DNA from: a virus
Taxonomy: Duplodnaviria > Heunggongvirae > Uroviricota > Caudoviricetes
Direction: 5' to 3' (one strand)
IMG/VR virus record: IMGVR_UViG_3300049003_000001
Coordinates: 13,660 to 77,659 of that record
DNA: 64,000 bases
Below are positions 20,519 through 61,776 of the stretch, in pieces. The position numbers were made by a program, and so were the translations under genes. A model generated the notes under the pieces. The model was given only the letters and a program-made list of their open reading frames with translations. It was not told the DNA's origin and searched no databases. The number at the start of each line of letters is the position of its first letter. Within the stretch, counting starts at the first letter, position 1.

Positions 20519-20741
20519 CAGCACAGATGATCCGCCGGTTCTCTTTCGAGGGAGAGTACGCGGAGACAAAGCTAATCCAGACTCGCATGGAACTGAACAC
20601 GGCGATGATCGTGGAAATGCGGGATGAAGGATTCGTCCCTCTGCTGGACGTAAATCCAGTATGGGCAACGACGTACCTGGGCGGTGAACGGTTTGCATTC
20701 AAGTTCACCATGCAGGGCGTATATGTAGGAGAGGAAGTGGC

Positions 20742-21824
20742 TTGGCGTACAACAGGCGTGATGGACGGAAAACTGATTCCAAACCATCGTGGGAAGTAGA
20801 ATCCGTTTATTCGGAGGAACAAATTGAAGCCGTAATCGAAGAGTGCGGCGAGCGGGTAAACGACTACGAAGAGAGTCACTTTCGCCTGTACTGTCCTTTC
20901 CACGGTAATACCAATAGCCCGACCCTCGTCATCGACAGGGAATCGGGACTGTTCCATTGCTTCAACCCGGCCTGTGGCACCTCCGGGACGCTCATCGAAT
21001 TCGTGATGCGTTTGACCAAGGGAACCCCGTTCGCGGCAGCTAGGCTTATCGCCAAGCACAAGACCGCGACGGGGCTCACCCTGGACGAACGGCTAGCCCG
21101 TGAATTGGCCGTGGAGGAAGAATGGGTGCCTTTCCCGGTAGAGACCCTAGCCCGGTGCTACGATGAATTCTGGCAGACGCCTGCGGCGATTGAGTACATG
21201 CACGGTCGCCACTTTGAGGATGAGACGCTAGAGTATTTCCGTATCGGGTATTCCGCACGCCGTGATACCATCATGGTTCCGATGCACTCGCCGGACGGGT
21301 TGCCAGTTGGCGTCATCGGGCGTAGTATCAAGGGCAAGGATTTCAAGAACAGCAAGGAACTTCCGAAGAAGAAGGTTCCGTGGAATTACCACCGCGCTAA
21401 GCGCGAGGGCGACACAGTGATTATCTGTGAGGCGTCGTTCGATGCGATGCGAATTCACCAGGCGGGTTACCGCAACGTGGTCGCTCTATTGGGTGGTTCA
21501 TTGTCTCCGCAGTGTCAGCGCTTGCTGGCTCGGACATTCAACAATATCGTCATCATGACGGACAACGATGACCCTACGAAGCACGTTTACCCAGGTTGCC
21601 TCATTTGTAAGAAGGCCGGGTCGCTGTGCAAGGGTCACAATCCCGGTGAAGACCTGGGGCTTTCAATTGCCAATAAGATGCGCGACAAGCGTGTCCTGTG
21701 GGCACACTGTGGCGAGGCTACGAGATTCCCTAAGGGCATCAAGGACGCCGGGGATATGACGGACCAAATGATCCGGCATTGTATCTCAAACGCCATCAGT
21801 TCGCTAGAATACATGCTCGATTAA
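20742..21824 (+). CDS. DNA primase (CHC2 zinc finger + TOPRIM)
   Basis: CPFHGNTNSPTL...HCFNPACG zinc finger. TOPRIM-like VIICEASFDAMRI...IVIMTDNDDPT. The exact start is uncertain. Confidence 0.75.
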   Translation: MAYNRRDGRKTDSKPSWEVESVYSEEQIEAVIEECGERVNDYEESHFRLYCPFHGNTNSPTLVIDRESGLFHCFNPACGTSGTLIEFVMRLTKGTPFAAARLIAKHKTATGLTLDERLARELAVEEEWVPFPVETLARCYDEFWQTPAAIEYMHGRHFEDETLEYFRIGYSARRDTIMVPMHSPDGLPVGVIGRSIKGKDFKNSKELPKKKVPWNYHRAKREGDTVIICEASFDAMRIHQAGYRNVVALLGGSLSPQCQRLLARTFNNIVIMTDNDDPTKHVYPGCLICKKAGSLCKGHNPGEDLGLSIANKMRDKRVLWAHCGEATRFPKGIKDAGDMTDQMIRHCISNAISSLEYMLD

Positions 21825-22665: not shown

Positions 22666-22977
22666 ATGGACAGAACCTTCTACACGTGGTATCTTAAAAG
22701 TCCGAAGTGGGCGGCGAAGCGTGAAGTCTACTTCAACCTTTATGGAAAATATTGCCGGGCCTGTAGGACCACCTATGGGCCTATTCAGCTTCACCACCTG
22801 ACGTACGAGCGCTTGGGCCGGGAGTCCATGCGTGACCTCGTTGCGCTTTGTAGCAAATGCCACCGCGAGGTTGAGCAGCTATACCGCAGAAGCGGGCGGG
22901 GTGACCGGATGGCTATTACGCTAGCCTTCATCAAATCTAAGAGGAAACCCAATGGAAGAAATGGCAGAAGAGCGTAG
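22666..22977 (+). CDS. small HNH-family endonuclease
   Basis: CRAC...LHHLTYE...CSKCH motif. The TAG stop is followed 2 codons later by an in-frame TGA. Confidence 0.5.
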   Translation: MDRTFYTWYLKSPKWAAKREVYFNLYGKYCRACRTTYGPIQLHHLTYERLGRESMRDLVALCSKCHREVEQLYRRSGRGDRMAITLAFIKSKRKPNGRNGRRA

Positions 22978-23354: not shown

Positions 23355-26300
23355 ATGAATTACACTGAGTTGCACCTGCACGACCACTACTCCGCGCTGG
23401 ATGGTTTGAATACCCCGGACGAGTACATGAAGCGCGCCAAGGAAATCGGGATGACCCACCTGGCGCAGACGAATCACGGAACCGGCGCTGGCTGGCGAGA
23501 CCACCAGACAGCCGCGAAGAATAACGGTATTGTCCCGATCCTTGGATTGGAGGCATACATCTCCGAGACCGACCGATTCGACAAGCGTGCGAAGGCTAGC
23601 CGTAAGGACGGCACTCAGGTCTATAACCACATTATCCTCCTGGCGCAGAACGAGGCCGGTCTAGGCAATCTCATGAAGCTCAACGAGATTGCTTGGGCCG
23701 AGGGTTTCTACCACAAGCCCCGTATCGATTTTGAGGTTTTGGGCGAGTACGCGGACGACCTGATTATTCTGTCGGGTTGCCTCAACTCCATTATCTGCAA
23801 GTCGCTAGAGGCCGGGGACGACCAGAAGGCTTTCGCCACGGCGAAGCGTCTCAACGACATTGCGCCGGGTCGTTTCTACATTGAGCTACAGGGGCACAAC
23901 CCGGCTCTCATCAATCACGGTCTCCTGTGGATTGCCGATTCTCTCGGTATCCCGGTGGTTGCCACGTCGGACTGCCACTACGCTAAGAAGGAAGACCTGT
24001 GGATTGAGGAAGCTATGCTTATCCTCTCCACGAACCCGAAGCCGAATAAGGACTTCGATTACTCAAAGTCTCAGAAGATGGATATGTTGGAGCGATTCAA
24101 CTACCTCTACCCTGACCGCACCATGAGTTTCGAGAAGTTTGAGCTTTTCCTGCACCGCAAGGAAGAGCACATGTCGGTTTTTCAGCGTCAGATGATCGAC
24201 CGCACCGACCTGTACCGGAACACGATGGAGATTGCAAACTCCATTGGGGAATATCCGTTCCACCAGGGCGTTGACCTCCTGCCGAAGCCGAAGAACGCCG
24301 ACCCCGACGTTATGCTGGAAGAGCAGGCGTGGGCCGGGTTGAAGAAGCGCGGTCTGTTCGGTAATCCGGAATACAAGGCTCGTCTCCGTGAAGAGCTTGA
24401 AATCATCAAGAGCAAGAATTTCTCGACGTACTTCATCATTGTGGCCGACGTAATTCAGTGGGCTAAGGATCAGGGAATTATGATGGGGCCGGGCCGTGGT
24501 TCGGCCGCTGGCTCTCTCCTGTGCTACGCTCTCAATATTACCGACGTTGATCCGATCAAGTACGGCCTCCTGTTCTTCCGATTCATTGACCCTGAGCGTG
24601 ACGACTACCCGGACGTTGACTTCGACTCCGCTGACAAGCGTCGCGGGGAAATCAAGGAATACCTCCGTCGTAAGTACGGCCACGTCGCCTCTATCGCTAC
24701 GTTCACGTTCTTTAGGGATAAGGGTGTCATCAAGGACGCTGCCCGCGTCTTCCGAGTTCCCTTCTCTGAGGTCAACCGTGCGCTAAAGGCGGTTGAGGCA
24801 CCCCCGGCGCTCGACTACTTCGATGTGTTCGTGGCCTCGCCCCAGGGCAAGGAATTCAACGACAAGTACCCTGAGGTCATTAAGCTGGCCTCAGAGCTTC
24901 GTGGGCGTATTCGTGGCGGCGGTATGCACGCTGCCGGTGTGGTGCTGGGAAACAAGCCGCTGTCCGACTACATGCCGATTGAGACGGCGACCAATACCGC
25001 TGACAAGAACGCACCTCGCATTCCGCTCATCGCGGCGGACATGAATCAGGTTGCCGAAATCGGCGGGATCAAGCTGGACGCGCTTGGCCTAAAGACGCTT
25101 TCCGTCATGGAGGACGCTCTGGTCATGATCGAGGACCGATATGGTAAGCGTATTGATCTGCTGAGCCTGCCGTTGGACGACGCCGGGGTGTTTCAGATGT
25201 TGTCCGATGGTCACACTAAGGGTGTATTCCAGTGTGAAGCCACGCCGTATACCAATCTACTAATTAAGATGCAGGTTAGTAGTTTCGATGACCTGTCGGT
25301 GTCCAACGCACTGATTCGTCCGGGTGCGATGAACGTGTTCGGAGACTCTTACCTGGCCCGTAAGGCTGGCAAGGAATTCTCTGAGCCGATCCACCCGGAC
25401 CTTGACAAGTATTTGGAGGATACGTACTTCCTCCCGATTTATCAGGAACAGTCGATGCGTCTGGTTTCTGACCTGGCGGGTCTCGGTATGTCGATGGCGA
25501 ATAAGGTCCGTAAGATTACGGCTAAGAAGCAGGACGTTACTCTGCTGGCCGAATACAAGGATTTGTTCATCGATGGCGCTGAGCCGAAGATCGGCCGGGG
25601 CAAGGCTGAGTGGCTGTGGGATTCTATTGAGGAAACCGCGTCCTACGCGTTCAACAAGTCTCACTCCGTGGCCTACTCCATGTTGTCCTATTGGACGGCT
25701 TGGTTGAAGTACCACTACCCGCGTGAGTTCATGGTCGCTATTCTCAACAACGAGGGCGACAAGGATGCGATGACCGATTACCTCATTGAGTGCAAGCGTC
25801 TCGGTATTCGCGTGATGCTGCCGCACGTCAACCGCTCAGGCGTTCATTTCCAGATTGAGGGTGGCGACGCTATCCGCATGGGGCTCTCCAACGTGAAGTT
25901 CCTTTCGGATATTACTGCTGCCCGAGTCCTTGAACGAGCGCCGTACAAGAGCTATACTGAGTTCTACGAGTACGTGATGGAGAAGGGCAACGGCCTGACC
26001 TCGCGCGTGCTACAGGGACTTAACGCAATCGGCGGGGCGTCCTTTGACGATAACCCGAAGACGGGTAACGAGCGAGACAATTTCTACGAGTTCCTGAGGA
26101 TTCCGGCATTCAACACGGGTGCCATCCCACCTCGTATTCGCGCTCAGTTCACCGAGCTTACGGATTATGTCGAAACTGGTTGCTTCATCGTCAGTGGCAT
26201 GGTCAAGAATATCAAGCGCGGCACCGGCTGGGCGCGGGCTGAGATTGTGGATGAGACTGGCACGGCAGGTATCTTCACCGATGAGAATACCCTGATTGAG

Positions 26301-26657
26301 CCCGGCAACCTCTACGTCTTCCTCGTGTCCGATAACCGGATTGCCCGATTCGCGTTGATTCAGGACGTGGTTGAGTTCGCCGGTAAGAACAGCTTCATTG
26401 ATTACCTCTACGCCAAGGATTTCGCGGACGTTCCGCCTCCGATGGTCAAGGTGATTAGCTGGAAGACGGTCGTGACCAAGGCCGGAAAGAAGATGGCTCG
26501 TGCGGTGGTTGCCGACGAGAATAAGACATTGAAGTCTGTCCTGATCTTCCCGCAGGATTTTGTAAAGGCATATAACAAGTTGAAGGAAGGTGCCGTGGTC
26601 GATATCGAGTACGGACGCCTAAAGGATGGGACGGAGATTTTCAGAAATGCAAGCTGA
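23355..26657 (+). CDS. dnaE: DNA polymerase III alpha subunit (DnaE-like, PHP + polymerase domains)
   Basis: N-terminal PHP motif LHLHDHYSALDG...HG. Core motifs GPGRGSAAGSL, FIDPER and PDVDFD. 1100 aa. Confidence 0.9.
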   Translation: MNYTELHLHDHYSALDGLNTPDEYMKRAKEIGMTHLAQTNHGTGAGWRDHQTAAKNNGIVPILGLEAYISETDRFDKRAKASRKDGTQVYNHIILLAQNEAGLGNLMKLNEIAWAEGFYHKPRIDFEVLGEYADDLIILSGCLNSIICKSLEAGDDQKAFATAKRLNDIAPGRFYIELQGHNPALINHGLLWIADSLGIPVVATSDCHYAKKEDLWIEEAMLILSTNPKPNKDFDYSKSQKMDMLERFNYLYPDRTMSFEKFELFLHRKEEHMSVFQRQMIDRTDLYRNTMEIANSIGEYPFHQGVDLLPKPKNADPDVMLEEQAWAGLKKRGLFGNPEYKARLREELEIIKSKNFSTYFIIVADVIQWAKDQGIMMGPGRGSAAGSLLCYALNITDVDPIKYGLLFFRFIDPERDDYPDVDFDSADKRRGEIKEYLRRKYGHVASIATFTFFRDKGVIKDAARVFRVPFSEVNRALKAVEAPPALDYFDVFVASPQGKEFNDKYPEVIKLASELRGRIRGGGMHAAGVVLGNKPLSDYMPIETATNTADKNAPRIPLIAADMNQVAEIGGIKLDALGLKTLSVMEDALVMIEDRYGKRIDLLSLPLDDAGVFQMLSDGHTKGVFQCEATPYTNLLIKMQVSSFDDLSVSNALIRPGAMNVFGDSYLARKAGKEFSEPIHPDLDKYLEDTYFLPIYQEQSMRLVSDLAGLGMSMANKVRKITAKKQDVTLLAEYKDLFIDGAEPKIGRGKAEWLWDSIEETASYAFNKSHSVAYSMLSYWTAWLKYHYPREFMVAILNNEGDKDAMTDYLIECKRLGIRVMLPHVNRSGVHFQIEGGDAIRMGLSNVKFLSDITAARVLERAPYKSYTEFYEYVMEKGNGLTSRVLQGLNAIGGASFDDNPKTGNERDNFYEFLRIPAFNTGAIPPRIRAQFTELTDYVETGCFIVSGMVKNIKRGTGWARAEIVDETGTAGIFTDENTLIEPGNLYVFLVSDNRIARFALIQDVVEFAGKNSFIDYLYAKDFADVPPPMVKVISWKTVVTKAGKKMARAVVADENKTLKSVLIFPQDFVKAYNKLKEGAVVDIEYGRLKDGTEIFRNAS

Positions 26658-29400: not shown

Positions 29401-29449
29401 CCAAGATGGCAAGGTGAGTCGCACGCAGCTTCTCACCTTGCCATCTTGG
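29401..29449. terminator. perfect 18-bp inverted repeat hairpin (bidirectional terminator between convergent genes)
   Basis: CCAAGATGGCAAGGTGAG-(13 nt loop)-CTCACCTTGCCATCTTGG. It lies 9 nt past the stop of the minus-strand gene. Confidence 0.7.
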
Positions 29450-29458
29450 CATCTTGCC

Positions 29459-30673
29459 TCAGGTGTTCTTGCCACCCTTGATGACCGTCAGGTTGGACGG
29501 CTTTGCAGTGGTGCGGGTCTTGCGAGGACGGGGCTTCTTTCCGTCCAATTCCGCCTCCATCTGCCGCATTTCCTCTTCCTGCTGGTGCTTGGCAACCAGA
29601 GCCGCCGCCTCGCTGGCCGACAGATTCCGGATATCCGATTCCGGCATGCACCAGAACCAGAAGGCCCCGAGCTTGCGCGACCGGACGTTGAGCTTGCCCT
29701 TGGCCGTGCGGACCTGCGAGGTCGTGAATCCGGCTTCCTTGGCAAGCTGGAAAATGATGACCGGAGACTTGACGCCACCTTCCTCCATGAGCGTGTCGCG
29801 GAGGAATTCGACTGCCTCTTCCCGCTCGTTGCGCTGAGCGGAATCCACCTTGCGGTTCCGCATGAGGTCGTCCGCGTCGATGTTCTCGACCGGCTTGGAT
29901 TCCCACACGAGCTTCGGCTTGCCGCGCACCGTGTGAATTTCGTAGGCGAGCGACGCGGGCTCAGAGGTCACGTTCATCTTCGTGCAGGCGATGATGCGAC
30001 GCTTCGGCTTGTCCGGGTCCGGGCCGACGAGATATCCGAAACGGCACTGGCCGATAAGACCCATCGAACCGCCACCGGCCTGCTTGGCGTTCTTGCCGCC
30101 GCCCTTGGTCAAGTGGCGAACCATGATGACCGTGACGCCGGTTTCCTTCGCCATGTCCGCGAGAGGCGCGACCGCCTTGCGAATCTGCTGGTCGCTCCCG
30201 GAGTGGACTCCGAGGAAAACCATGATCGGGTCGATGATGACCAGACGAATGTTGTTTTCCCGGATGATATCCCGTATAGTGGGGATATCGCGGGGAAGTG
30301 AAGGCGTCTCCCCGCCGACGTTGCTCAACTGGATGATCTTGGAGAGGTCACCACCGGCAGCGTCACAGCGAGCGGCGATTTCCTCCGGGGAGTCCTCCGA
30401 GGCGATGAAGAGCACGCCCTGAGCGCCACCGTGAACGACGGAGTTGTCGGGCCACTTGCCGCCCTTGGAAACCCGAGCGGCGAAATCGGTGGTAACCATC
30501 GACTTCCCGAGACCGGGGTCGCCGTCCAGCACGCCGATGCCGCCGGGAACGAGGTGTCCGTCCCACAACCACGGGGTGCGGTTCTTGGTCCCGCCGACGC
30601 GCCGACGCGCAATTGCGTCGAGCCGGGTCACGGTATATCCCGCAGTGCGCGGGGACCGAGTACGAGTAGCCAC
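29459..30673 (-). CDS. AAA/RecA-superfamily ATPase (RepA/DnaB-C-terminal-like, AAA_25 type) with C-terminal HTH-like tail
   Basis: Walker A GDPGLGKS. Walker B-like LVIIDPIM. GTG start with a GGAGG RBS. It is the only minus-strand gene. The local GC content is visibly higher, with spurious ORFs in all six frames. Confidence 0.65.
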   Translation of the reverse strand: MATRTRSPRTAGYTVTRLDAIARRRVGGTKNRTPWLWDGHLVPGGIGVLDGDPGLGKSMVTTDFAARVSKGGKWPDNSVVHGGAQGVLFIASEDSPEEIAARCDAAGGDLSKIIQLSNVGGETPSLPRDIPTIRDIIRENNIRLVIIDPIMVFLGVHSGSDQQIRKAVAPLADMAKETGVTVIMVRHLTKGGGKNAKQAGGGSMGLIGQCRFGYLVGPDPDKPKRRIIACTKMNVTSEPASLAYEIHTVRGKPKLVWESKPVENIDADDLMRNRKVDSAQRNEREEAVEFLRDTLMEEGGVKSPVIIFQLAKEAGFTTSQVRTAKGKLNVRSRKLGAFWFWCMPESDIRNLSASEAAALVAKHQQEEEMRQMEAELDGKKPRPRKTRTTAKPSNLTVIKGGKNT

Positions 30674-30741
30674 TTGTCCTCCCTTCCTTGTCTGGTGTTG
30701 GGAGGGACGTTACACCCCTCAGACGAACATGTCAAGAGGTC

Positions 30742-30752
30742 AAGATGCGAAG
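30742..30752. repeat. direct repeat AAGATGCGAAG (right copy)
   Basis: Identical to 29388-29398. It is followed at 30764-30777 by CTCATCTTGCCATC, which matches the hairpin arm CTCACCTTGCCATC at 29432-29445. Confidence 0.7.
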
Positions 30753-30823
30753 TTGTACGGGACTCATCTTGCCATCATCCTCACGCTTAGTAGCGCTTAG
30801 ATATACAGGGAGTTAATAGGAAT

Positions 30824-36173: not shown

Positions 36174-38033
36174 ATGTTTGATTTTGACGATTTCCTTTCG
36201 ATTGTAGAGGACGGCGATCTAGAAGAGATTCCCGTAGATATTGACACATTCATTCAGGACGAGCGCTACCTGAACCGTCCCGAGGTCACATTGTCGGACT
36301 ACCAGCGACAGTGTATCCTCGCGTCCACTCAGATTTACCGCAAGTCAACTCTGTTGCAGTTCCTCTCGGATAAGGAAGCCGAGAAGCGCTGGCAGCAGAC
36401 CTGCAATGAGGTAATCCTACAGCTAGGCAAGGGTTCGGGTAAGGACTTCATGTCCGCTATCTCGTGTGCCTACATGGTTTACCTATTGCTTTGTCTGAAA
36501 GACCCGGCCAGGTATTACAACAAGCCGTCCGGTGACACCATCGATATTCTGAACATCGCGCAGAACTCCGCACAGGCGTCTAACGTCTTCTTCGCCAACG
36601 TATCCCGATTGATCCAGAAGGCCCCGTGGTTCGTGGGCAGGTACGAGACCAAGGGCGGGTCGGCGGAACCGGCGAAGGCAAACCAGATCGACTTTGACAA
36701 GAATGTAACCCTGTACTCAGGCCACTCCGAGCGAGAGGCGTGGGAGGGCTATAACGTCATCATGGTTATCCTTGACGAGATTGACGGTTTTGCCAACGAC
36801 TCCGCATCCGGTGTTATGGGTAAGACCGCTGCCGGTATTTACGATATGTACCGCGCCTCCGTTGATTCCCGATTCGGTGAGTTTGGCAAGGTGCTCGCGC
36901 TGTCCTTCCCGCGTTACAAGGGCTCATGGATTCAGACGCGCTACGATCAGATCGTTGCCGCGAAGACCACGGTTGTCCGCACAGAAATCCTAAAGCTCGA
37001 CCCGGACCTCCCGGACGGCTTTGAGGGAAATGAAATCAAGATCGAGTGGGACGAGGACCACATCGAGCAGTACAAGTATCCGAAGATGTTCGCCTTGAAG
37101 CGTCCGACCTGGGACGTTAATCCACACAAGCACATCGAGGAATACGCTCGTGCATTCTTCGATAACTACATCGACACCCTCAGCCGTACCGCGTGTATGC
37201 CACCGGACGCCATCGACGCGTTCTTCAAGGACACGCAGAAGGTCAACGACGCATTCACTTCTACGAATATCGTGAGCAACGACGACGGCCGTTTTGATGA
37301 AAACCTTGCGCGACCGGACGACAGCAAGCTATACTTCGTCCATGTTGACCTCGCCCGCAAGCACGACCGCTGTGCGGTGGCGATGGGACACGTTGAGGGG
37401 TTCGTTCAGCGCAAAATTGGTCAGATTACTACCGAGCCTGCGCCGCTCATCAAGATCGATTCACTCAGGTATTGGATTCCTAAGAAGGACCAGCCGGTAG
37501 ACTTCACTGACGTTCGTCAGCATATTCTCGATTTGGCCCGCGCCGGGTACAATATCCGACTGGTCACGTTCGACCAGTGGGAGTCTGCTGACATGAGGAA
37601 ATACTTGGAGCAGGCCGGGCTAAGGACCGACAAGCTGTCGGTAGCAATCAAGCACTATACAGACTTCGCGGTTGCGGTGGCCGAGGGGCGTCTAGAGGGT
37701 CCGGACGAGCCACTATTGCGCGAAGAGCTTCTAGCGCTTAGAATTATGCAGAACGGAAAGATCGACCACATGCGCCAGGGATATAAGGACTTGTCCGACG
37801 CCACGTGTGGTGCTATCTTTAACGCAATTGCCCTGACGCCTCGTGAGCGAAACACCGAGGTCGAGGTCAGGACATATAAGGACGTAAAGAAGCAGGTCGT
37901 CAACGACACTGTGGCTAAGCAGCTTGCCGAGCAGGAAGCCCGCAAGGTAATCCGCGCCCCCTCGGCTAAGGCCACGGGTAAGCAGATGCCTAAGCAGCTA
38001 TTTGATTGGATTAACAGCGCCAAGGTGCTGTAA
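36174..38033 (+). CDS. terL: terminase large subunit
   Basis: Walker A QLGKGSGKD. Walker B VIMVILDEIDG. C-terminal RNaseH-like nuclease Asp cluster (VHVDLARKHDR...). Confidence 0.85.
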   Translation: MFDFDDFLSIVEDGDLEEIPVDIDTFIQDERYLNRPEVTLSDYQRQCILASTQIYRKSTLLQFLSDKEAEKRWQQTCNEVILQLGKGSGKDFMSAISCAYMVYLLLCLKDPARYYNKPSGDTIDILNIAQNSAQASNVFFANVSRLIQKAPWFVGRYETKGGSAEPAKANQIDFDKNVTLYSGHSEREAWEGYNVIMVILDEIDGFANDSASGVMGKTAAGIYDMYRASVDSRFGEFGKVLALSFPRYKGSWIQTRYDQIVAAKTTVVRTEILKLDPDLPDGFEGNEIKIEWDEDHIEQYKYPKMFALKRPTWDVNPHKHIEEYARAFFDNYIDTLSRTACMPPDAIDAFFKDTQKVNDAFTSTNIVSNDDGRFDENLARPDDSKLYFVHVDLARKHDRCAVAMGHVEGFVQRKIGQITTEPAPLIKIDSLRYWIPKKDQPVDFTDVRQHILDLARAGYNIRLVTFDQWESADMRKYLEQAGLRTDKLSVAIKHYTDFAVAVAEGRLEGPDEPLLREELLALRIMQNGKIDHMRQGYKDLSDATCGAIFNAIALTPRERNTEVEVRTYKDVKKQVVNDTVAKQLAEQEARKVIRAPSAKATGKQMPKQLFDWINSAKVL

Positions 38034-38091: not shown

Positions 38092-38616
38092 ATGCAGCTA
38101 GAGTTGTCACGACAGGAAACGATTGAAATACTAACCATCCGCGACGGCTATACCTGCATGTTCCCGGACTGCACGGAGCCTTTGACGGATACCGGCAACC
38201 ACATGGTCACGCTTGACCATATTTACCCACAGGCGCTAGCGAAGCGCGACGGTTGGTCTATTGATAAGATCAACCATATCAACAACCTACAGTTGATGGG
38301 TAAGAACTGCAACGCTCGTAAGGGCCACCTAATTCCTGACGAAAACGGAAATTTGCCGTTGAAGGTCAAGGAGCCTCGCGCCCTAGCCAAGTCTGAGCGA
38401 CCAGTTATTTGCGAAACTTGCTACGCCGGAAGGTTGCTATTTCTCGGAGAGGAATGCTACGATTGCGGTAGCGGCCCGCAGCCAGCGATTGCCCCAAAGG
38501 CGACACAGAAGACGCCGAAGGAATGCACGCACGCGGGTCATGACCACTGTTGGATGTGCTACCTGGGATTTGTCGAGCGTTCATCCGCCCTGACCAACCT
38601 TGTGACTGGCAAATAG
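38092..38616 (+). CDS. HNH endonuclease with C-terminal zinc fingers
   Basis: DHIYPQA...N...NCNARKGH His-Me finger. TAG stop backed by an in-frame TAA 3 codons downstream. Confidence 0.7.
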   Translation: MQLELSRQETIEILTIRDGYTCMFPDCTEPLTDTGNHMVTLDHIYPQALAKRDGWSIDKINHINNLQLMGKNCNARKGHLIPDENGNLPLKVKEPRALAKSERPVICETCYAGRLLFLGEECYDCGSGPQPAIAPKATQKTPKECTHAGHDHCWMCYLGFVERSSALTNLVTGK

Positions 38617-38629
38617 ACAAAGGAATAAA

Positions 38630-39691
38630 GTGAACATCGCTGAATTGTTCGACAAGGAACTGTTTCAGCAGATGGTGGATGAGAAGATGGTGACCGTTCG
38701 AAATCACGACGGTCATCCTCTTCTCATTGCCAACTACTCAGACGCGGTTCAGTTCCGGAATTACTGGAACGAGGTCACGCTTAACTGCCGTGGTCTCATC
38801 TTTGATTGGGATGGGGAAATTCTCGCCCGTCCGTGGAAGAAGTTCTTCAATTTGGGGGACAGCAAGGCTCCGTGGATCGGCTTTGACGACCGCGTTGAGG
38901 TTACCGACAAGATGGATGGCAGTCTTGGCATTCTTTACATGTACGACGGCAAGCCGTCAATCTCCACTCGTGGCTCGTTCCACAGCACACAGGCCGGGTG
39001 GGCGACGAAGCACATTCGTAAGATTGAAGGACTCGATCTTCGATTTGCTCCGCATTTCACTTTCCTATTTGAGATTATCTACCCTACGAACCGAATTGTT
39101 GTTGATTACGGACGTTTCGAGGGTCTGGTTCTCCTGGGGGCGGTCGAGGTTGAGAACGGTCACGCAATTGGGCCGAATGAGGCAGCCGCTCTCCTGAATT
39201 GGCCGGGACTCACCACGGAGCTAATGCCGCATAAGTCGATCAACGATGTGCTGGCAGCGTCGGACCGTGAGAACACCGAGGGCTACGTCATCCGCCGGGG
39301 CGACGATATGGTCAAGTGGAAGCGTCCCGATTACATCAATCTCCACCGCCTTATCTCAAACCTTTCCGAGAAGTCGGTATGGAGCGGGCTAGAGGGCGGG
39401 AAGACGCCAGAGCAGTTGTGCGAAGACCTTCCGGACGAATTCCACGGATTCGTCAAGGAAACGTCATTCAAGCTAAAGCTGGCATTCCAGACCCGAATCA
39501 ACGAGGTGCAGCGGACATTCGGCAAGGTGATGTATGACCTGCCGGTTATGCCCCCGAGCCGCAAGGATTTCGCATGGGCCGTTCGGGACAATCCGGATAA
39601 GGCATACATGTTCGCTCTGCTAGACGACAAGGACATTGCTCCGATGGTCTGGCAGGAGCTAAAGCCAAAGGGCGAGCCAGAGGTCCGGTGA
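38630..39691 (+). CDS. RNA ligase (Rnl, KxDG nucleotidyltransferase)
   Basis: Motif I VTDKMDGSLG (KxDG). GTG start. Adjacent to Pnkp and the tRNA islands. Confidence 0.7.
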   Translation: MNIAELFDKELFQQMVDEKMVTVRNHDGHPLLIANYSDAVQFRNYWNEVTLNCRGLIFDWDGEILARPWKKFFNLGDSKAPWIGFDDRVEVTDKMDGSLGILYMYDGKPSISTRGSFHSTQAGWATKHIRKIEGLDLRFAPHFTFLFEIIYPTNRIVVDYGRFEGLVLLGAVEVENGHAIGPNEAAALLNWPGLTTELMPHKSINDVLAASDRENTEGYVIRRGDDMVKWKRPDYINLHRLISNLSEKSVWSGLEGGKTPEQLCEDLPDEFHGFVKETSFKLKLAFQTRINEVQRTFGKVMYDLPVMPPSRKDFAWAVRDNPDKAYMFALLDDKDIAPMVWQELKPKGEPEVR

Positions 39692-40647
39692 ATCAAATAC
39701 CGTACATGATGGCGAATACGCCAGAAGAGTTCTATAGAGTTAGGGATTTAGGTGTGAGTAATTTGCTGGCCCTCCGGGGCATCAGCGGGTCCGGGAAGAG
39801 CACCTACGCTCGTGAGCTAAAGGCTCAGGGCTGGGTGGTCGTATCCCGAGACGACATTAGAGAAACCATGTTCCGCGATTACCAGTCGGTAGACGAGGAC
39901 GTGGTAACCGTCGTGCAGGATGCCGCAATTCGGGCAGCCTTGAAGGCCGGACGCCGGGTCGTGGTTGATGACACGAATATCCGGGTGAAGTACCTAAAGC
40001 GATTCGTCAAGATTGCTCAGGACGCCGGGGCTCTGTTTGAGGTAAAGCAGTTCGATTGCGACGCTAACGAAGCAATCAAGCGAGTCGAGAAGCGTTTCAT
40101 GGACGGTGGCCGGAATGTCCCAGAAATGGTCATTCGCAAGCAGGCTCAGGGGCTAAAGTCTAGTAAGCTAGACTGGAATGAGCTTTACGACCAGGGTCCG
40201 ACCTTTGAGCCTTACGAGCGACCCGCAGGAAAGCCTTGGGCAATTCTGGTGGACGTGGATGGCACTCTGGCTCATAACGACGGCCACCGGGGCTGGTACG
40301 ATTACGAGAAGGTCTACGGCGATATCGTCAAGGAAGACATTGCGGAAATCGTCCGGACGTATGCCGAGGGCGGATATCATAAGGTAATCATCATGAGCGG
40401 CCGGGATGATGTATGCCAGGACGAGACTGCCAGGTGGTTGACGGATAACGGAATTCCGTTTGATGAAATCCACATGCGGAAGACCGGCGACCAGCGGAAG
40501 GATTCCATCGTTAAGATGGAGTTGTTCGATGAGTTTGTGCGGGACAACTACCGGGTGGAGTTCGTATTGGACGACCGTAATCAGGTTGTCGAGGCATGGC
40601 GTGGCATCGGTCTCACTTGCCTACAGGTTGCGCCGGGAGACTTCTAA
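39688..40647 (+). CDS. pnk: polynucleotide kinase-phosphatase (Pnkp)
   Basis: N-terminal P-loop GISGSGKST kinase. C-terminal HAD phosphatase motif VDVDGTL...MSGR...DD. Confidence 0.8.
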   Translation: MNQIPYMMANTPEEFYRVRDLGVSNLLALRGISGSGKSTYARELKAQGWVVVSRDDIRETMFRDYQSVDEDVVTVVQDAAIRAALKAGRRVVVDDTNIRVKYLKRFVKIAQDAGALFEVKQFDCDANEAIKRVEKRFMDGGRNVPEMVIRKQAQGLKSSKLDWNELYDQGPTFEPYERPAGKPWAILVDVDGTLAHNDGHRGWYDYEKVYGDIVKEDIAEIVRTYAEGGYHKVIIMSGRDDVCQDETARWLTDNGIPFDEIHMRKTGDQRKDSIVKMELFDEFVRDNYRVEFVLDDRNQVVEAWRGIGLTCLQVAPGDF

Positions 40648-40939: not shown

Positions 40940-41200
40940 GTGTGCTACGGTTGGCGATGTAATGCCACCGCCAGTCGATCCGAGGGGACGACGACCATGC
41001 AATTCGAATACGAGGCCATCCAGAAGGCACTGAACGGCCAGAAGGCGCACGGGACTGCCAAGGTCACGATCTATCTGACCAAGGGCGATTCGGCGTGGAA
41101 CCCGGCGAGTACCAAGAATCTGATTTACGGACCCGCCGAAGTCATGTACGAGGAAATGCCGGACGGCGCGATCAACGCCTACATCGACGGGGCTAGATAA
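40940..41200 (+). CDS. hypothetical protein
   Basis: 86-aa ORF. Confidence 0.3.
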   Translation: MCYGWRCNATASRSEGTTTMQFEYEAIQKALNGQKAHGTAKVTIYLTKGDSAWNPASTKNLIYGPAEVMYEEMPDGAINAYIDGAR

Positions 41201-41214: not shown

Positions 41215-41285
41215 GCGCCTGTAGCTTAGCGGCAAAGCAGCCCTCTCTAAAAGGGTGTACGCCGGTTCGAATCCGGTCAGGCGCA
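41215..41285 (+). tRNA. tRNA with anticodon CUA (amber-suppressor-like, Sup)
   Basis: Acceptor GCGCCTG/CAGGCGC. D GCTT/AAGC. Anticodon stem GCCCT/AGGGT with loop CT-CTA-AA (U33, A37). T-arm GCCGG-TTCGAAT-CCGGT. 4-nt variable loop. Confidence 0.7.
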
Positions 41286-41728
41286 CGTGATTCAAGATAT
41301 CGTCATCCGTGGCACGTCCCGGTACATCTCTTACCGCCGTGCAGACGGGAGTCCGGCTTATGCCACTCTTTACAACGCCGACCTCTCGTGCGACCATGAC
41401 GTGCGAGCTAAGGAATTGTGGGAGGGCGGCGGGGTCACTTGCCGCAAATGCGAGGGGTGGTTCTGCTACTGATGATCTGGTATGACGCAGTGACGTACGA
41501 GCCGGTAGCGCCGGGTGAGGGCGAGGACGGTGGTCGCCCTTCTATGGAGTATTACTACTGCCCTCGGTGCAAGGTAGCACGGACGATGGTCGAGAAGATG
41601 CGGGCCATGATCTGTGAGGTCTGCCGGACTGTATTGCTGGTCCGATGAAGCAGCCAGAGGCATTCATCCTGTTTGCGGCGTTTTTAGTCCTCGTGATGGT
41701 GATGCTACATGCGGCGTAAAAGAAAAAT

Positions 41729-41758
41729 TTGACACGGCTGACGCGGGTCTGCTAGAAT
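41729..41758 (+). promoter_or_regulatory. promoter TTGACA-N18-TAGAAT for tRNA island 1
   Basis: gtctgcTAGAATagat matches the 16653 promoter almost exactly. Confidence 0.6.
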
Positions 41759-42678: not shown

Positions 42679-42683
42679 CACCA

Positions 42684-42710
42684 CCCCTCGTCTCTGGCGA
42701 GGGGTTTTTC
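42684..42710 (+). terminator. rho-independent terminator closing tRNA island 1
   Basis: CCCCTCG-tctctgg-CGAGGGG followed by TTTTTC. Confidence 0.75.
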
Positions 42711-50474: not shown

Positions 50475-50683
50475 TGAATGTTGAATTGCAGACCATCGAT
50501 GGTCAGTTCTTTAGCTCTGATCCGTTCGACAACGAGTACGACGTGAATCTGACCAGCGTGGCCGACGAGCTACGCGGACTATTCACTAGCTGGCGGGAGA
50601 TGGATTACCTCTCGCTGGTCATCGGCGGGCGGGTCCGGTATTTCAACCCGGCCAACGTGCTGTGGGCGGAAATCGTTAACTGA
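50474..50683 (+). CDS. hypothetical protein
   Basis: 69-aa ORF. Confidence 0.3.
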   Translation: MNVELQTIDGQFFSSDPFDNEYDVNLTSVADELRGLFTSWREMDYLSLVIGGRVRYFNPANVLWAEIVN

Positions 50684-51000
50684 TGTTCAAGCATGTTGAC
50701 ACGACCCGTCCGTATCCCGCAACCGAAATGACGACGGCGAAGTGGAAGCAGGTTCCGTGTTTTTGGGTGGATATCAGTGACCTGATTGCTACCCAAGAGG
50801 GCGTGAATTTTCAGCCGCTTATCGTCATCGACCGGGCAATGCGGTACACCTCGCACAGTGGTGATATTCACCCGCACGTCGTGTCCTGGCGGGGTAACCT
50901 ATATCTGGAAGACGGCCATCACCGCACGGTCGGCAGACTGTTTGATGGAAAGAAGACAGTCTTCGCCCGAGTGTTGACCATCGTAGACCACGGAGAGTAG
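50683..51000 (+). CDS. ParB-like nuclease domain protein
   Basis: LYLEDGHHRTVG matches the ParB/Srx DGHHR motif. 105 aa. Confidence 0.5.
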   Translation: MFKHVDTTRPYPATEMTTAKWKQVPCFWVDISDLIATQEGVNFQPLIVIDRAMRYTSHSGDIHPHVVSWRGNLYLEDGHHRTVGRLFDGKKTVFARVLTIVDHGE

Positions 51001-52386: not shown

Positions 52387-52719
52387 GGGCCTGACTTGGT
52401 TTCGACTCTTAGTGGACATTGTTAGACGCAGCCGGTCTTGGGTAGAGACCTTAAACAACTCAAAATAATAAATGCAGACTACGACATTGTAGCTGAGGCA
52501 GAGGCCATCACCCGTGAGGCCGCTGCCGCCCTTGTTTCTGCCTGATCTAAACCCTCAGGATTGACAAGCAGGGAACAGTGGACGCCCTGATAACCAAACG
52601 TCCCTAGCAACACCCTAGCACTGCCGTGAGAAATGCAAGACCCGCCGGGGATACGGATGGCTGTAATTCGGATTTCAAGATAAGCTAGGAACACGCGGGT
52701 TCGACTCCCGCCAGGTCCA
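52387..52719 (+). ncRNA. ssrA: tmRNA (SsrA)
   Basis: The 5' end GGGCCTGACTTGGTTTCGAC and 3' end GCGGGTTCGACTCCCGCCAGGTCCA parallel the E. coli tmRNA termini. The acceptor GGGCCTG/CAGGTCC has the G3·U70 Ala identity pair. A candidate tag frame GCA GAC TAC ... GCC TGA reads ADYDIVAEAEAITREAAAALVSA*. Confidence 0.7.
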
Positions 52720-52750
52720 CGTGAGGATTATTGAAAAGGGAATCCTAGAG

Positions 52751-57165: not shown

Positions 57166-57238
57166 TGGCCCTGTATTCCAACGGTAGAGAAAGTGGATTC
57201 AAAACCCATACAGTGTCGGTTCGAATCCGACTAGGGCT
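57166..57238 (+). tRNA. tRNA with anticodon CAA (Leu anticodon on a class-I short-variable-arm body)
   Basis: Acceptor GGCCCTG/TAGGGCT. Anticodon arm GTGGA-TT-CAA-AA-CCCAT with an A·C at 31-39. T-arm GTCGG-TTCGAAT-CCGAC. A73. Confidence 0.55.
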
Positions 57239-57348
57239 ACGTGGATAGTTGCAACTGTCCAAAGAAGTGTTGGGGTGCGATACCCAATCGAGTAAACAAC
57301 ACTTTCCAATGAAAGGTGCAGTCATCCGGGGACTGCATGCTTTCACAT

Positions 57349-57429
57349 GCCCGTGTGGTGGAATGGCAGACACGCGTGCCTTAGGAGCACGTACCGCAAG
57401 GTGTGCAGGTTCAAGTCCTGTCACGGGTA
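57349..57429 (+). tRNA. tRNA-Leu(UAG), long variable arm
   Basis: Acceptor GCCCGTG/CACGGGT. Anticodon stem CGTGC/GCACG and loop CT-TAG-GA. A 13-nt variable arm. T-arm GCAGG-TTCAAGT-CCTGT. Confidence 0.75.
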
Positions 57430-57430
57430 C

Positions 57431-57847
57431 ATGGCGTATACCTCGAAAGAGCAATACGAAAGAGTTTACTACGGTAGAAAGAACGGTTATCTACAGTATC
57501 TAGGTGGCAAGTGTGCAGTCTGTGGGTCGTCCGACGATCTAGAGTTTGACCACATTGACTGGCGGACTAAAGACTTTGGTATTATGAGAAAGTGGTCCGC
57601 CGCAGATCAGGCCCAGGTGTATAGAGAGCTTGACAAGTGTCAGTTGCTTTGTGTTGAGCACCACGCCGAGAAGACCAGCAAGGACATTAGCCAGCAGAGG
57701 TCGGAGCAAATCAAGCCGATCAATCACGGCAAGATGTACGCATGGCAAAAGCGCAAGTGTCGCTGTGACATTTGCTCCGAGGCGCGTCAGGCATTCTATG
57801 ACGCCAGAAACGAAAGGCGCAGAAATGGCAATGTTGTTTCGCGTTGA
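57431..57847 (+). CDS. HNH endonuclease
   Basis: CAVCG...EFDHIDW...N...LLCVEHHAEKT. Its ATG is 2 nt after tRNA-Leu. Confidence 0.65.
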   Translation: MAYTSKEQYERVYYGRKNGYLQYLGGKCAVCGSSDDLEFDHIDWRTKDFGIMRKWSAADQAQVYRELDKCQLLCVEHHAEKTSKDISQQRSEQIKPINHGKMYAWQKRKCRCDICSEARQAFYDARNERRRNGNVVSR

Positions 57848-58190
57848 GAACCCGTTCACTAAGGCCGGGCTCTGGTACAGCGAGACCGGGAAGTACACCG
57901 GAATCGTGACCAAGATGGAGAATTACCGAAACAAAGACCTTCCGATGGCCCACGAGGACTGCATGGCCGGTGGCTGGCACTCCGCTGTGGATAACTTGGA
58001 CGACTTGAAGCAGTGGTTCAACTTTGAGGAAATGACGGAGCTAGAGCGAACGGGCTACGGCATTTACGCATTCAACGTGGACAGCTATCGGATTGGCCGG
58101 TCGGAGACGGGCATCGAGCACGCAGTGTTTCAGCGAGACGCGGTGGTCGGTGGCAAGTACCTCCGGTTGGACCGAGGGGTTCTACTCTAG
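57825..58190 (+). CDS. hypothetical protein
   Basis: 121-aa ORF whose start overlaps the end of the HNH gene. Confidence 0.3.
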   Translation: MAMLFRVENPFTKAGLWYSETGKYTGIVTKMENYRNKDLPMAHEDCMAGGWHSAVDNLDDLKQWFNFEEMTELERTGYGIYAFNVDSYRIGRSETGIEHAVFQRDAVVGGKYLRLDRGVLL

Positions 58191-58269: not shown

Positions 58270-58343
58270 GGCCGTATAGCCCAATTGGCAGAGGCGTTGC
58301 GCTTAGAACGCAAAGGTTGGGGGTTCGAATCCCTCTACGGCTA
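58270..58343 (+). tRNA. tRNA with anticodon UAG (Leu anticodon) on a class-I body
   Basis: Acceptor GGCCGTA/TACGGCT. D GCC/GGC. Anticodon stem TTGCG/CGCAA and loop CT-TAG-AA. 5-nt variable loop. T-arm GGGGG-TTCGAAT-CCCTC. A73. Confidence 0.6.
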
Positions 58344-58347
58344 CCTA

Positions 58348-58406: not shown

Positions 58407-59069
58407 ATGAAATTGCTAGATTTGTTCTGTTGCGCGGGAGGCGCAAGCGTCGGCTACAAGCTCGCCGGATTCACGGATATTACGGGTGTGGATATCGAGC
58501 ACCAGAAGAATTATCCATACCGTTTCGTGCAGGCTGACGCCCTAGAATACGTACGTGAGCACGGGCATGAATACGACTTCATCCACGCCAGTCCGCCATG
58601 CCAGGCATCCTCCCTCATTTCTAAGGGAACTAATGCTGGTAAGTTTGAGTATGAACAGCTAATTCCCGATACAAGAGCCGCCTTAGAGGCGACGGGCAAG
58701 CCTTATTGCATTGAAAACGTGGCTGGTGCCGAGATGAGACGCGACCTAACTCTGTGTGGAGAATACTTCGGCCTCGGCGTCATCCGTCACCGCTGGTTTG
58801 AGTTGAACTGGTCGTGCGAGCAGCCGCCCCACATCAAGCACAGAGGCCGGGTGGCCGGATTCCGGCACGGAGTTTGGTACGAAGGCCCGTACTTCGCCGT
58901 ATACGGACGTGGGGGCGGCAAGGGCAGCCCTCAGCAGTGGCAGAAGGCTATGGGGATTTACTGGACCCACCTACAGCGGGAGCTAGCCGAGATGCTTCCC
59001 CCGGCGTACTGCGAGTACATCGGCGGACAGTTTCTAAAAAACCTTGAAACAGGGCTTGACGGAGCGTAG
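58407..59069 (+). CDS. DNA (cytosine-5)-methyltransferase
   Basis: Motif I LFCCAGGAS (FxGxGG). Motif IV SPPCQ (PCQ). ENV motif CIENVAG. Confidence 0.75.
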   Translation: MKLLDLFCCAGGASVGYKLAGFTDITGVDIEHQKNYPYRFVQADALEYVREHGHEYDFIHASPPCQASSLISKGTNAGKFEYEQLIPDTRAALEATGKPYCIENVAGAEMRRDLTLCGEYFGLGVIRHRWFELNWSCEQPPHIKHRGRVAGFRHGVWYEGPYFAVYGRGGGKGSPQQWQKAMGIYWTHLQRELAEMLPPAYCEYIGGQFLKNLETGLDGA

Positions 59070-61150: not shown

Positions 61151-61449
61151 GATGGAACACCCCGCTAGCTATTCACGTTGGCGGGGTGTTCTCGTATACT
61201 GGAAAAGACAATGAAGCGCAAACTACTCTACGCGGCACTGATGGCCTACTGTATCGCAGTATGGTCCCTTCTCGGATTCGGAATTTGGACGGTATGGACA
61301 TGAGCCCCAACATCTTTGACGGTCTCTTTTACCTGATGATTCTCACCTTCATCCTCCTGATGCTCCGGGCGAAGTTCCGGCGGAAGTAGCCATTTGCTTT
61401 TGAATTTGGGAAAGCGTACAATAACGATATAAACCCGTTAGGAGGTGTT

Positions 61450-61776
61450 TTGATAATGAGTTTCAATTTTGGTGGACCGGCTTCCGGTCCGGATCGCGGT
61501 GTTGAAGAGGCCGATGGCCGCTACGCGCGTGACCACGAGGCCCGTGGTGGCGACCAGAAGTACACCTACGATGGTGCGAAGAAGCCGGTTCTAGCGACCG
61601 TAGCGGCCGACGCCGCAGGCGGACGTAACGACCGCGACCTCCTAGAGCAGACCGTAGACCGTCAGGAGCATCTTTACGTCGATGGTGAGACGGGCATTTC
61701 TGCCGTTACCGGCGCGAAGGGTGCTGACTTTGACGAGCTAAAGGCTGGCCCGCCAGCACAGGTTGCAGGTCAGTGA
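61450..61776 (+). CDS. hypothetical protein
   Basis: AGGAGG RBS. 108 aa. Followed by a terminator. Confidence 0.3.
   Translation: MIMSFNFGGPASGPDRGVEEADGRYARDHEARGGDQKYTYDGAKKPVLATVAADAAGGRNDRDLLEQTVDRQEHLYVDGETGISAVTGAKGADFDELKAGPPAQVAGQ

Follow-up and report, generated by a model that had tools for sequence, protein, structure and literature searches.

A candidate UAG-decoding tRNA, conserved in soil relatives of a Stanwilliamsviridae-like phage, in a genome segment that uses the standard code

A stretch of 64,000 nucleotides taken from the IMG/VR virus record IMGVR_UViG_3300049003_000001 (Caudoviricetes; positions 13,660 to 77,659 of that record), hereafter designated as the window, carries a transfer RNA (tRNA) gene whose anticodon, CUA, pairs with the amber stop codon UAG. 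The window appears to represent about half of the genome of a Stanwilliamsviridae-like actinophage. The gene is probably a genuine phage tRNA that decodes UAG and is maintained by selection, as an accessory component of a phage that otherwise uses the standard genetic code. This interpretation is carried by the quality of the tRNA gene, by the retention of its anticodon in six relatives whose tRNA bodies have diverged considerably, and by the absence from the visible genes of any TAG read as sense; expression, charging and the inserted amino acid are inferred by us from the sequence. The coordinates of the features discussed are collected in Table 1.

The tRNA at positions 41215-41285 of the + strand is real and well formed. 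ARAGORN finds 31 tRNA genes and a transfer-messenger RNA (tmRNA) in the window, all on the + strand, and the CUA tRNA (41215-41286 in its output) is the first of them. The Rfam family RF00005 matches 41215-41285 at 66.5 bits (gathering score 29), which places the gene among the best of the 31 tRNAs. Divided into its structural segments, the sequence reads GCGCCUG-UA-GCUU-AGCGGCA-AAGC-A-GCCCU-CUCUAAA-AGGGU-GUAC-GCCGG-UUCGAAU-CCGGU-CAGGCGC-A. It forms a class I cloverleaf, which is also the minimum free energy fold, with a 7-bp acceptor stem, a 4-bp D stem, a 5-bp anticodon stem and a 4-nt variable loop. The conserved tertiary positions U8, A14, G18G19, A21, G53, T54-Psi55-C56 and A58 are all present; A9 follows U8, the D loop AGCGGCA contains G18G19 and lacks A20, and the T loop is UUCGAAU. 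The acceptor end is made of G1-C72 and C2-G71 with discriminator A73, and the CCA terminus is not encoded. The 7-nt anticodon loop, C32-U33-C34-U35-A36-A37-A38, is closed by a stem of one G-U pair, three C-G pairs and one U-A pair, and other registers of this stem pair over 2 bp at most. The original prediction, which had placed a tRNA with anticodon CUA and a canonical fold (7-bp acceptor, U33, A37, T loop TTCGAAT) at 41215-41285, is borne out in each of these respects by ARAGORN, by Rfam, and by the sequence and its bracket structure, and no alternative register competes for the anticodon.

ARAGORN labels this gene 'Pyl', a name that it gives to every CUA tRNA. The hallmarks of the pyrrolysine tRNA, tRNA-Pyl, are a 6-bp anticodon stem, a 3-nt variable loop and a short D loop without G18G19, together with the absence of a T-Psi-C sequence and a single base between the acceptor and D stems. 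The window tRNA shares with it the CUA anticodon, the only likeness apart from the printed label, and differs in all structural hallmarks: its anticodon stem has 5 bp, its variable loop 4 nt, its D and T loops read AGCGGCA and TTCGAAT, and both U8 and A9 are present. As regards the genes pylS and pylBCD, no Pyl family was matched among the approximately 30 window proteins that were scanned against Pfam, a scan that covers these open reading frames (ORFs) only. A pyrrolysine tRNA is refuted on structure and retains practically no probability.

In order to find relatives, an alignment of four terminases was used to collect 160 related loci from JGI metagenomes and IMG/VR; a metagenome scan with a single terminase sequence found nothing, whereas the alignment-based scan succeeded. 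ARAGORN predicted 598 tRNAs across all loci. A CUA tRNA is present in six uncultivated soil relatives, namely L001 (79% terminase identity), L009, L017, L087, L089 and L095, in each case 1.1-3.7 kb downstream of the terminase and usually between Pro tRNAs or an HNH gene on one side and Gln/Trp or Gly/Glu/Trp tRNAs on the other. It is absent from approximately 16 other soil-clade loci of comparable coverage, among them close relatives of carriers (L088 as opposed to L089), and from the clade of freshwater phages with low guanine-plus-cytosine (GC) content. Within the soil clade of Stanwilliamsviridae-like phages the CUA tRNA is an accessory gene, which one close relative may have and another lack.

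Two further candidates were discarded. For the gene found at 13277-13350 in L011 and L096, ARAGORN reports 'Pyl (cta)' on a mismatched stem; the canonical register gives the loop CUUCUAA, hence Arg(UCU); with the Arg(UCU) tRNA of L097 the gene shares 92% identity in the tRNA body. Together with the 'Pyl' label, this mis-registered tRNA-Arg is a warning to annotators and a pitfall for counts of suppressor tRNAs. A degenerate D-arm and anticodon-arm pattern also matched a CUA tRNA in L004 with U73 and an encoded CCA, which was judged not homologous; it stands alone on the minus strand (4541-4616) of an unrelated viral contig of low GC content (34-38%).

The seven CUA tRNAs, aligned by hand segmentation, display standard pairs at 146 of 147 stem positions, and 17 of the 21 pairs vary, many of them on both sides. 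A tool count gives full pairing of the D stem and 94% pairing of the anticodon stem across the seven, with two-sided changes in 7 of 9 pairs. The elements found in all seven are U33-C34-U35-A36-A37, G1-C72, C2-G71, G10-C25 and A73, and A38 is kept in six. Pairwise identity among these tRNAs is 58-71%, except for the close pair L089/L095 (90%), and the syntenic orthologues of sense tRNAs in the window and in L001 or L087 are 62-89% identical. The anticodon appears to be under selection, because CUA has been held over as much divergence as separates such sense-tRNA orthologues, and this conservation is the main argument for a functional tRNA. The amber-suppressor character proposed for the gene from its anticodon is thereby strengthened. 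As a separate observation, the tRNA genes of this phage family diverge unusually fast: syntenic tRNAs that share an anticodon (Gly, Glu, Trp, Pro, Ile, Val) reach an identity of only 62-78% when the window is compared to L001 or L087, for terminases that are 60-79% identical.

The origin of the CUA tRNAs can be traced in part. The bodies (acceptor, D and T arms) of those of L001 and L017 are 89% and 80% identical, respectively, to tRNA-Arg(UCU) genes of the family, the anticodon arms being different, and the acceptor stem of the L001 copy is that of the Arg(UCU) tRNA of L058. These two genes are tRNA-Arg(UCU)-type genes remodelled in their anticodon arm. As judged from sequence identity, the ancestry of the window copy is ambiguous, its body being 78% identical to each of the Arg(UCU), Lys(CUU) and Asp(GUC) tRNAs. 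The anticodon loops of this copy (CUCUAAA) and of the tRNA-Lys(CUU) that the phage itself encodes (CUCUUAA) are one base apart, and their D loops, AGCGGCA and AGAGGCA respectively, are alike as well. The likeness to tRNA remoulding, or alloacceptor shift, concerns L001 and L017, where the acceptor, D and T arms are shared with Arg(UCU) and the anticodon arm differs, A20 being mostly lost; the window copy is set apart by its ambiguous ancestry.

A gene derived in such a manner could also be a neutral or decaying by-product of tRNA turnover, one that arose when a duplicate of a gene of Arg(UCU) or Lys(CUU) type mutated in its anticodon loop, and that has little or no function. The rapid gain, loss and remodelling of tRNA genes in the family, where syntenic orthologues share only 62-89% identity, is what this explanation would predict, and so are the clear descent of the L001 and L017 copies from Arg(UCU) bodies, the patchy occurrence among close relatives, the C31-A39 mismatch and unusual A8 of the L017 copy, and the lack of any genomic adaptation to suppression. 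A drifting pseudogene, however, would lose its anticodon over a body divergence of 30-40%, whereas the seven diverged copies keep CUA, U33 and A37 exactly (and A38 with a single exception) on stems maintained by compensatory changes, and the window copy scores as high as almost any other tRNA of its genome. We consider this alternative unlikely, while granting it some weight.

Whether TAG is read as sense was examined at several levels. No TAG on the + strand of the window has coding potential on both sides. In a tblastn comparison of the window proteins to 166 related loci, no TAG was aligned within a homologue. Comparison of 2232 proteins from all loci to the seven CUA-bearing sequences produced a few in-frame TAG candidates, none of which was genuine on inspection: the one at L009 1216 is a terminal stop, and those at L009 3288, L009 11739, L089 13643 and L095 1755 were rejected on the grounds of an antisense ORF that has stops in CUA-less phages as well, of a position upstream of the true start of a small-terminase-like gene, or of a pseudogene with mixed stop types. 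The density of coding sequence, computed with our own crude gene caller and not with Prodigal, amounts to 85.3% under the standard code (89.5% when RNA genes are counted) and to 86.0% with TAG as sense, a gain of 0.7 points most of which runs through a tRNA-Leu gene. Recoded phages have been recognized by a density gain of more than 5-10% with the recoded stop (Borges et al., bioRxiv 10.1101/2021.08.26.457843). The standard code applies to the visible part of the genome, with its tail, replication, packaging and tRNA regions. The idea of a relic of genetic-code flexibility receives no support in the 64 kb seen.

The use of TAG as a stop was then compared to that of the other stops. The gene set, obtained with a caller combining codon usage and dynamic programming, contains approximately 100 genes, all but two of them on the + strand, which end with TGA (60), TAA (34) or TAG (6). 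One more real TAG-ended gene, the HNH gene at 22666-22977, is absent from the caller's set, so that 6-7 of about 100 genes end with TAG. The statement that TAG is rare in the window is correct in so far as it is the rarest stop (6-7%); it is not rarer than in relatives devoid of the CUA tRNA, since 7 of about 100 is not significantly below their 10.8% (Fisher p = 0.29). Taken together, the CUA-bearing loci have a TAG share of 10.6% (20/188) against 10.8% (67/622) in the CUA-less soil relatives.

The original prediction had further claimed that each TAG stop is backed up by a second in-frame stop nearby, an arrangement tolerating readthrough. The three cases on which this was based exist: the TAG codons at 22975-22977, 38614-38616 and 20797-20799 are followed by a stop as the second codon (TGA), the fourth (TAA, after three sense codons) and the twelfth (TAA). 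The generalization fails with four further TAG-ended ORFs, whose next stop lies 29, 293, 52 and 129 codons off. Nor is the spacing itself unusual. Among window genes the next in-frame stop comes at a median of 11 codons for those ending with TGA, and likewise for those ending with TAA, and a second stop within 12 codons is found for 52-54% of the TGA- or TAA-ended genes as compared to 43% of the TAG-ended ones. When the window and the six CUA-bearing relatives are pooled, a second stop does not follow TAG more closely than it follows the other stops (Mann-Whitney p = 0.45), nor does it follow TAG more closely in CUA-bearing loci than in CUA-less relatives (p = 0.89). The second stops found after TAG are what chance gives, and an adaptation of the genome to readthrough is not supported.

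Regulated C-terminal extensions, another role that had been envisaged, are equally without support, as the TAG-ended genes matched by Pfam or PHROG are complete at their TAG. Suppression of host amber codons, the third meaning that had been envisaged, is possible. Three particular cases were considered and rejected. Readthrough is not needed to complete a truncated methylase at 58413-59069, since motifs I, IV and VI as well as the C-terminal PP motif all precede the TAG and the protein is already past its C-terminal motif. A readthrough fusion of 57825-58190 to 58413-59069 was dismissed on account of the tRNA-Leu gene lying in between, and a fusion of 61261-61389 to 61456-61776 on account of a promoter-like site (TTGCTT-17-TACAAT) located between the two. 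It may be mentioned that 57825-58190 and 58413-59069 are in one frame and that the 73 codons separating them, tRNA-Leu gene included, contain neither TAG nor TGA nor TAA, which is probably due to chance. The TAG-ended genes are often of mobile or accessory type (two HNH endonucleases, the methylase and a VapB-like gene), which is an ordinary reason for atypical stop usage. On a related matter, at least three HNH-type endonuclease genes are scattered over the window (22666-22977, 38092-38616 and 57431-57847), two of them TAG-ended, a pattern consistent with mobile homing genes of differing codon and stop usage. The VapB-like gene at 50683-51000 sits among tRNA islands with no VapC partner alongside, and could be an anti-toxin or anti-defence gene directed at host VapC tRNases.

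These data bear on the possibility that the gene is the code-change tRNA of a partly recoded phage, after the model of crAss-like, Lak and other TAG-recoded phages, in which genes outside the window (capsid, portal, late genes) would contain in-frame TAG codons and be switched on late. The window covers 64 kb of a contig of at least 77.7 kb and of a genome whose full size is probably close to 130 kb. The region with capsid and portal is situated upstream of it, and Logan fragments of 6-17 kb extended the view by 1.1 kb in that direction. In phages, the presence of a CUA tRNA goes strongly with TAG recoding, which affects structural and lysis genes above all (Borges et al. preprint). The structural genes that can be inspected nevertheless argue otherwise: no in-frame TAG occurs in the tail genes (tail tube, 1912-aa tape measure, proteins of 1086 and 822 aa), nor in the replication or terminase genes. 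The coding density hardly responds to the code change, no genuine in-frame TAG was seen in the six CUA-bearing relatives, TAG serves as a real stop as often as in CUA-less relatives, the GC content of 55% is not the low GC linked to recoding, and the tRNA is not Gln-like. Partial recoding is accordingly given a low probability.

The amino acid that such a tRNA might insert can be approached through its identity elements. In E. coli the Lys identity set is U34, U35, U36 and A73, and that of Gln includes U1-A72, G2-C71, G3-C70, U35, G36 and G73; U35 is read strongly by lysyl-tRNA synthetase (LysRS) as well as by glutaminyl-tRNA synthetase (GlnRS), the two enzymes that usually mischarge CUA suppressors (PMC1483225). 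Within the phage family, the Arg tRNAs all keep A20, whereas the CUA tRNAs lack it in all cases except L017 and have U35 instead of C35 throughout; recognition by arginyl-tRNA synthetase (ArgRS) would thereby be lost. The 30 Gln tRNAs of the family nearly all combine U1 with G73, and the Trp tRNAs have G73. The Lys tRNAs have A73 in 18 of 18 cases with mostly C or U at position 20, and it is this Lys pattern that the CUA tRNAs match. The window copy, with G1-C72 and A73, is unlike the tRNA-Gln (U1-A72, G73) expected for a reassignment of TAG to Gln. To our knowledge, actinobacteria generally lack GlnRS, and the usual competitor of LysRS would thus be removed. LysRS is the leading candidate, since U35 and A73 are present while A20 and C35 (ArgRS), U1-A72 and G73 (Gln) and G73 (Trp) are absent, and lysine is, with moderate confidence, the best guess for the inserted residue.

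The immediate surroundings of the gene suggest how it may be expressed. The CUA tRNA is embedded between ORFs, the next of which begins 1 nt after it, and no promoter-like site was detected between 40500 and 41215. Upstream lie an RNA ligase and a polynucleotide kinase-phosphatase (Pnkp) which, as judged from their domain matches, make up a T4-type tRNA repair pair, followed by small ORFs; downstream, a strong promoter-like site and a terminator-like hairpin flank the seven tRNAs of island 1. The original description of a tRNA located after the Pnkp operon and ahead of the first promoter-driven tRNA island is confirmed by this layout, in which the ligase, Pnkp and two small ORFs precede the gene. 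The L087 homologue of the zinc-ribbon-like ORF that follows in the window stands 0.66 kb upstream of the CUA tRNA of L087. The repair pair directly follows the terminase and its HNH gene in the window; it is found about 18-20 kb downstream of the terminase in Gilson and about 30 kb in Jay2Jay, and the module has moved relative to these two genomes.

Table 1. Features of the window considered in this work, in order of position
Feature	Position	Strand	Evidence and remarks
Small TAG-ended ORF, weak coding score, overlaps start of primase gene	20527..20799	+	TAG 20797-99; TAA is 12th codon after
HNH-endonuclease-like ORF, TAG-ended	22666..22977	+	HNH motifs in translation; TAG 22975-77, TGA is 2nd codon after
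Terminase-associated HNH endonuclease, TAG-ended	38092..38616	+	phrog_9645 E = 2e-50, matched through last residue; next stop 4 codons on
T4 Rnl1-like RNA ligase	38630..39691	+	PF09511 E = 1.2e-13; phrog_562 E = 3e-69
Polynucleotide kinase-phosphatase (Pnkp)	39688..40647	+	PF25109 HAD_PNKP E = 1.5e-49, AAA_33; phrog_505 E = 1e-94
Small ORF ending TAA then TAG, 14 nt before CUA tRNA	40940..41200	+	ORF list, sequence
tRNA, anticodon CUA (amber-suppressor type)	41215..41285	+	ARAGORN, Rfam, sequence, bracket structure
Small Cys-rich ORF, start 1 nt after CUA tRNA	41287..41472	+	ORF list
Small zinc-ribbon-like ORF	41418..41648	+	L087 homologue, tblastn 65% identity, E = 3e-9
Promoter-like site TTGACA-18-TAGAAT, TG-extended, 11/12 matches	41729..41758	+	Precedes tRNA island 1, downstream of CUA tRNA
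Terminator-like hairpin closing tRNA island 1	42683..42705	+	Follows the seven tRNAs of the island
VapB-like antitoxin gene, TAG-ended	50683..51000	+	PF23719 85 bits, match covering profile positions 2-96 of 97; second stop 29 codons on
TAG-ended ORF	57825..58190	+	Next in-frame stop 293 codons on, across tRNA-Leu 58270-58345
Small C5-cytosine-methylase-like gene, TAG-ended	58413..59069	+	PF00145; next stop 52 codons on
TAG-ended ORF of doubtful status (low coding score), same frame as gene 61456-61776	61261..61389	+	Next stop 129 codons on

The proximity of the repair genes raises the question of a non-decoding role in the contest over tRNAs, in which the CUA tRNA would act together with the adjacent Rnl1 and Pnkp, for instance as a decoy or inhibitor of a host anticodon nuclease. 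Its location directly after a T4-type repair module, an anticodon loop differing by one base from that of the phage tRNA-Lys(CUU) and the VapB-like antitoxin encoded among the tRNA islands are in line with this idea, and phage tRNAs that neutralize tRNA-cleaving defences are known, PARIS being an example. The neighbourhood is, however, not shared: the CUA tRNA is not beside Rnl/Pnkp in any of the six relatives that carry it, and the repair genes themselves stand far from the terminase in Gilson and Jay2Jay. The strict conservation of CUA and of A36-A37-A38 fits decoding better than mimicry, and we hold the decoy to be very improbable.

The preferred reading of the gene, a tRNA that decodes UAG, would involve the following steps. 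The CUA tRNA is most simply part of the ligase/Pnkp transcription unit, and co-transcription with that gene block is proposed because the tRNA lies 14 nt after one ORF and 1 nt before the next with no promoter of its own detected. It would be excised by RNase P and 3' processing, and the CCA, which the gene does not encode, would be added by host enzymes. A host aminoacyl-tRNA synthetase that tolerates CUA, most likely LysRS, would charge it, and once charged it would be a competitor of release factor 1 at UAG codons. Natural readers of UNN codons and efficient amber suppressors have the same A36-A37-A38 loop context. The expected outcome is a partial readthrough of UAG-ended ORFs of the host and of the phage and not the decoding of recoded genes. 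Candidate benefits are a perturbation of host translation during takeover, or a step preceding recoding as proposed for other phages.

Several points weigh against this proposal. No gene in the 64 kb needs UAG to be decoded, and the TAG stops show neither depletion nor any particular backup; the genome being without adaptation to strong suppression, the tRNA may suppress only weakly or serve another purpose. The gene is dispensable, as it is absent from the cultured phages Gilson (over the 20 kb downstream of the terminase) and Jay2Jay (over the whole tRNA region). The seven tRNAs compared were chosen by ARAGORN, so that their good stem pairing is partly built in, although the invariance of the acceptor end, discriminator and anticodon is not explained by selection through a tRNA finder. 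As regards lysine, the change from U36 to A36 weakens recognition by LysRS, U31-A39 moderately lowers Lys acceptance, and the identity rules used are those of E. coli. Finally, the genome contains 'Leu' tRNAs of class I shape with A73, which makes leucyl-tRNA synthetase (LeuRS) a possible charger. Either the suppression would be mild, or the host would be the target, or the gene would represent an early step to recoding.

The 'Leu' tRNAs just mentioned deserve a short description. Those at 57167-57240 and 58270-58345 have Leu anticodons (CAA and UAG) and a short variable arm (74-76 nt, class I shape), and they sit beside a normal 82-nt class II tRNA-Leu(UAG) at 57349-57430. Jay2Jay (L006) is annotated with tRNAs of the same kind plus a 72-nt 'Tyr' (together 18589-18664, 18823-18897, 37383-37459 and 26285-26356). 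They may be further remodelled tRNAs.

The affiliation of the phage was established from its proteins and gene order. A megablast search with the 3 kb around the tRNA against 50,697 phage records returned no match, and a sensitive blastn search of the same records with the tRNA and its flanks matched only the tRNA-Met of Salicola phage SCTP-2, a generic tRNA similarity. An exact 40-mer of the CUA tRNA had no match in IMG/VR; a degenerate anticodon-arm pattern matched nothing in 185,579 bacterial genomes and, in IMG/VR, only the L087 contig already known from the relatives set. Over 99-100% of its length, the terminase (36174-38033) shares 52-57% identity with those of Streptomyces phages of the BE cluster (Stanwilliamsviridae), Gilson, Jay2Jay and Coruscant included; its identity to that of Rhodococcus phage Trina is 41%. 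The gene order of the window, with tail genes (among them the tape measure), replication genes, terminase and HNH, then tRNA islands among small ORFs, is syntenic with the 125-134 kb Stanwilliamsviridae genomes, in which the Gilson and Jay2Jay annotations list terminase, HNH, tRNA islands, tmRNA and Rnl/Pnkp. The GC content is 54-57% across the window (about 55%), and the presence of a WhiB gene points to an actinobacterial host. Because no nucleotide-level match was found, the phage would be at most a distant, unclassified relative of the Stanwilliamsviridae.

Two other features of the window were recorded. At 29459-30673 on the minus strand, a lone minus-strand gene in an otherwise all-plus window encodes a 404-aa AAA_25/KaiC-like ATPase of the RecA superfamily (104.7 bits); it overlaps the long plus-strand ORFs 29414-30301 and 30431-30790, neither of which has a Pfam match. 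The tmRNA, at 52387-52720 on the + strand (Rfam, 69.5 bits), encodes a long, atypical tag peptide, ADYDIVAEAEAITREAAAALVSA, as compared to ANSNFALAA in Gilson.

Phage-encoded CUA suppressor tRNAs are already known, best from TAG-recoded gut phages, and the suppressor tRNAs of TAG-recoded phages were reportedly treated by Ivanova in 2014. The Sup-CUA tRNAs of crAss-like, Lak and Garnet/Amethyst phages (bioRxiv 10.1101/2021.08.26.457843) resemble the window tRNA in their canonical fold, their CUA anticodon, their standard-code host and their location in a standard-code part of the genome. Unlike these phages, the window phage has no in-frame TAG and gains no density when TAG is read as sense; it has a GC content of 55% and a probable actinobacterial host where the former are low-GC gut phages, and its G1-C72/A73 tRNA is not Gln-like. 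Standard-code relatives of recoded phages that carry a suppressor tRNA have also been described in the Agate clade, and its acquisition was proposed as a step before recoding (same preprint). The window phage is comparable to this clade in having a suppressor tRNA in a genome still in the standard code and patchily distributed among close relatives. The published case, however, concerns a suppressor of TGA carried by a low-GC gut phage for which recoded sister genomes exist, whereas no recoded relative was seen among the 166 related loci and TAG is not depleted.

The laboratory amber suppressors of E. coli, reportedly the subject of the Normanly/Abelson/Miller series, provide another comparison. 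They share with the window tRNA a CUA in a CUCUAAA-type loop, and the U35 and A73 through which LysRS charges foreign CUA tRNAs (Fukunaga et al. 2006, PMC1483225). The window tRNA differs in being a natural phage gene. A literature search on suppressor tRNAs in actinophages returned nothing specific. The setting described here is unusual: an actinophage with 55% GC, a tRNA that is not Gln-like, and no recoding in any relative sampled.

A bolder view, which we regard as speculative and rather unlikely, is that this soil actinophage clade has repeatedly made or kept amber suppressors, obtained by remodelling sense tRNAs of the Arg(UCU) or Lys(CUU) kind, which serve it as a weapon or a switch. 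They would either force UAG readthrough on the host proteome at takeover, perhaps with lysine, or decode a few late genes containing TAG in the half of the genome that has not been seen. In high-GC actinobacterial hosts, TAG terminates far more genes than TAA does. Should TAG-containing late genes be decoded, an actinophage would for the first time be reported to recode TAG, and the amino acid would not be glutamine. The weight of the finding would rise if the complete genome had such genes or if host-directed readthrough were demonstrated.

Suppressor tRNAs of phages have so far been discussed almost only as recoding tools of low-GC gut phages. Here, a conserved CUA tRNA is found in a 55%-GC, standard-code actinophage lineage with neither recoding nor avoidance of TAG. 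If active, it would constitute a natural system for studying what a suppressor does for a virus before, or without, recoding, and would show which synthetase charges such a tRNA in hosts devoid of GlnRS.

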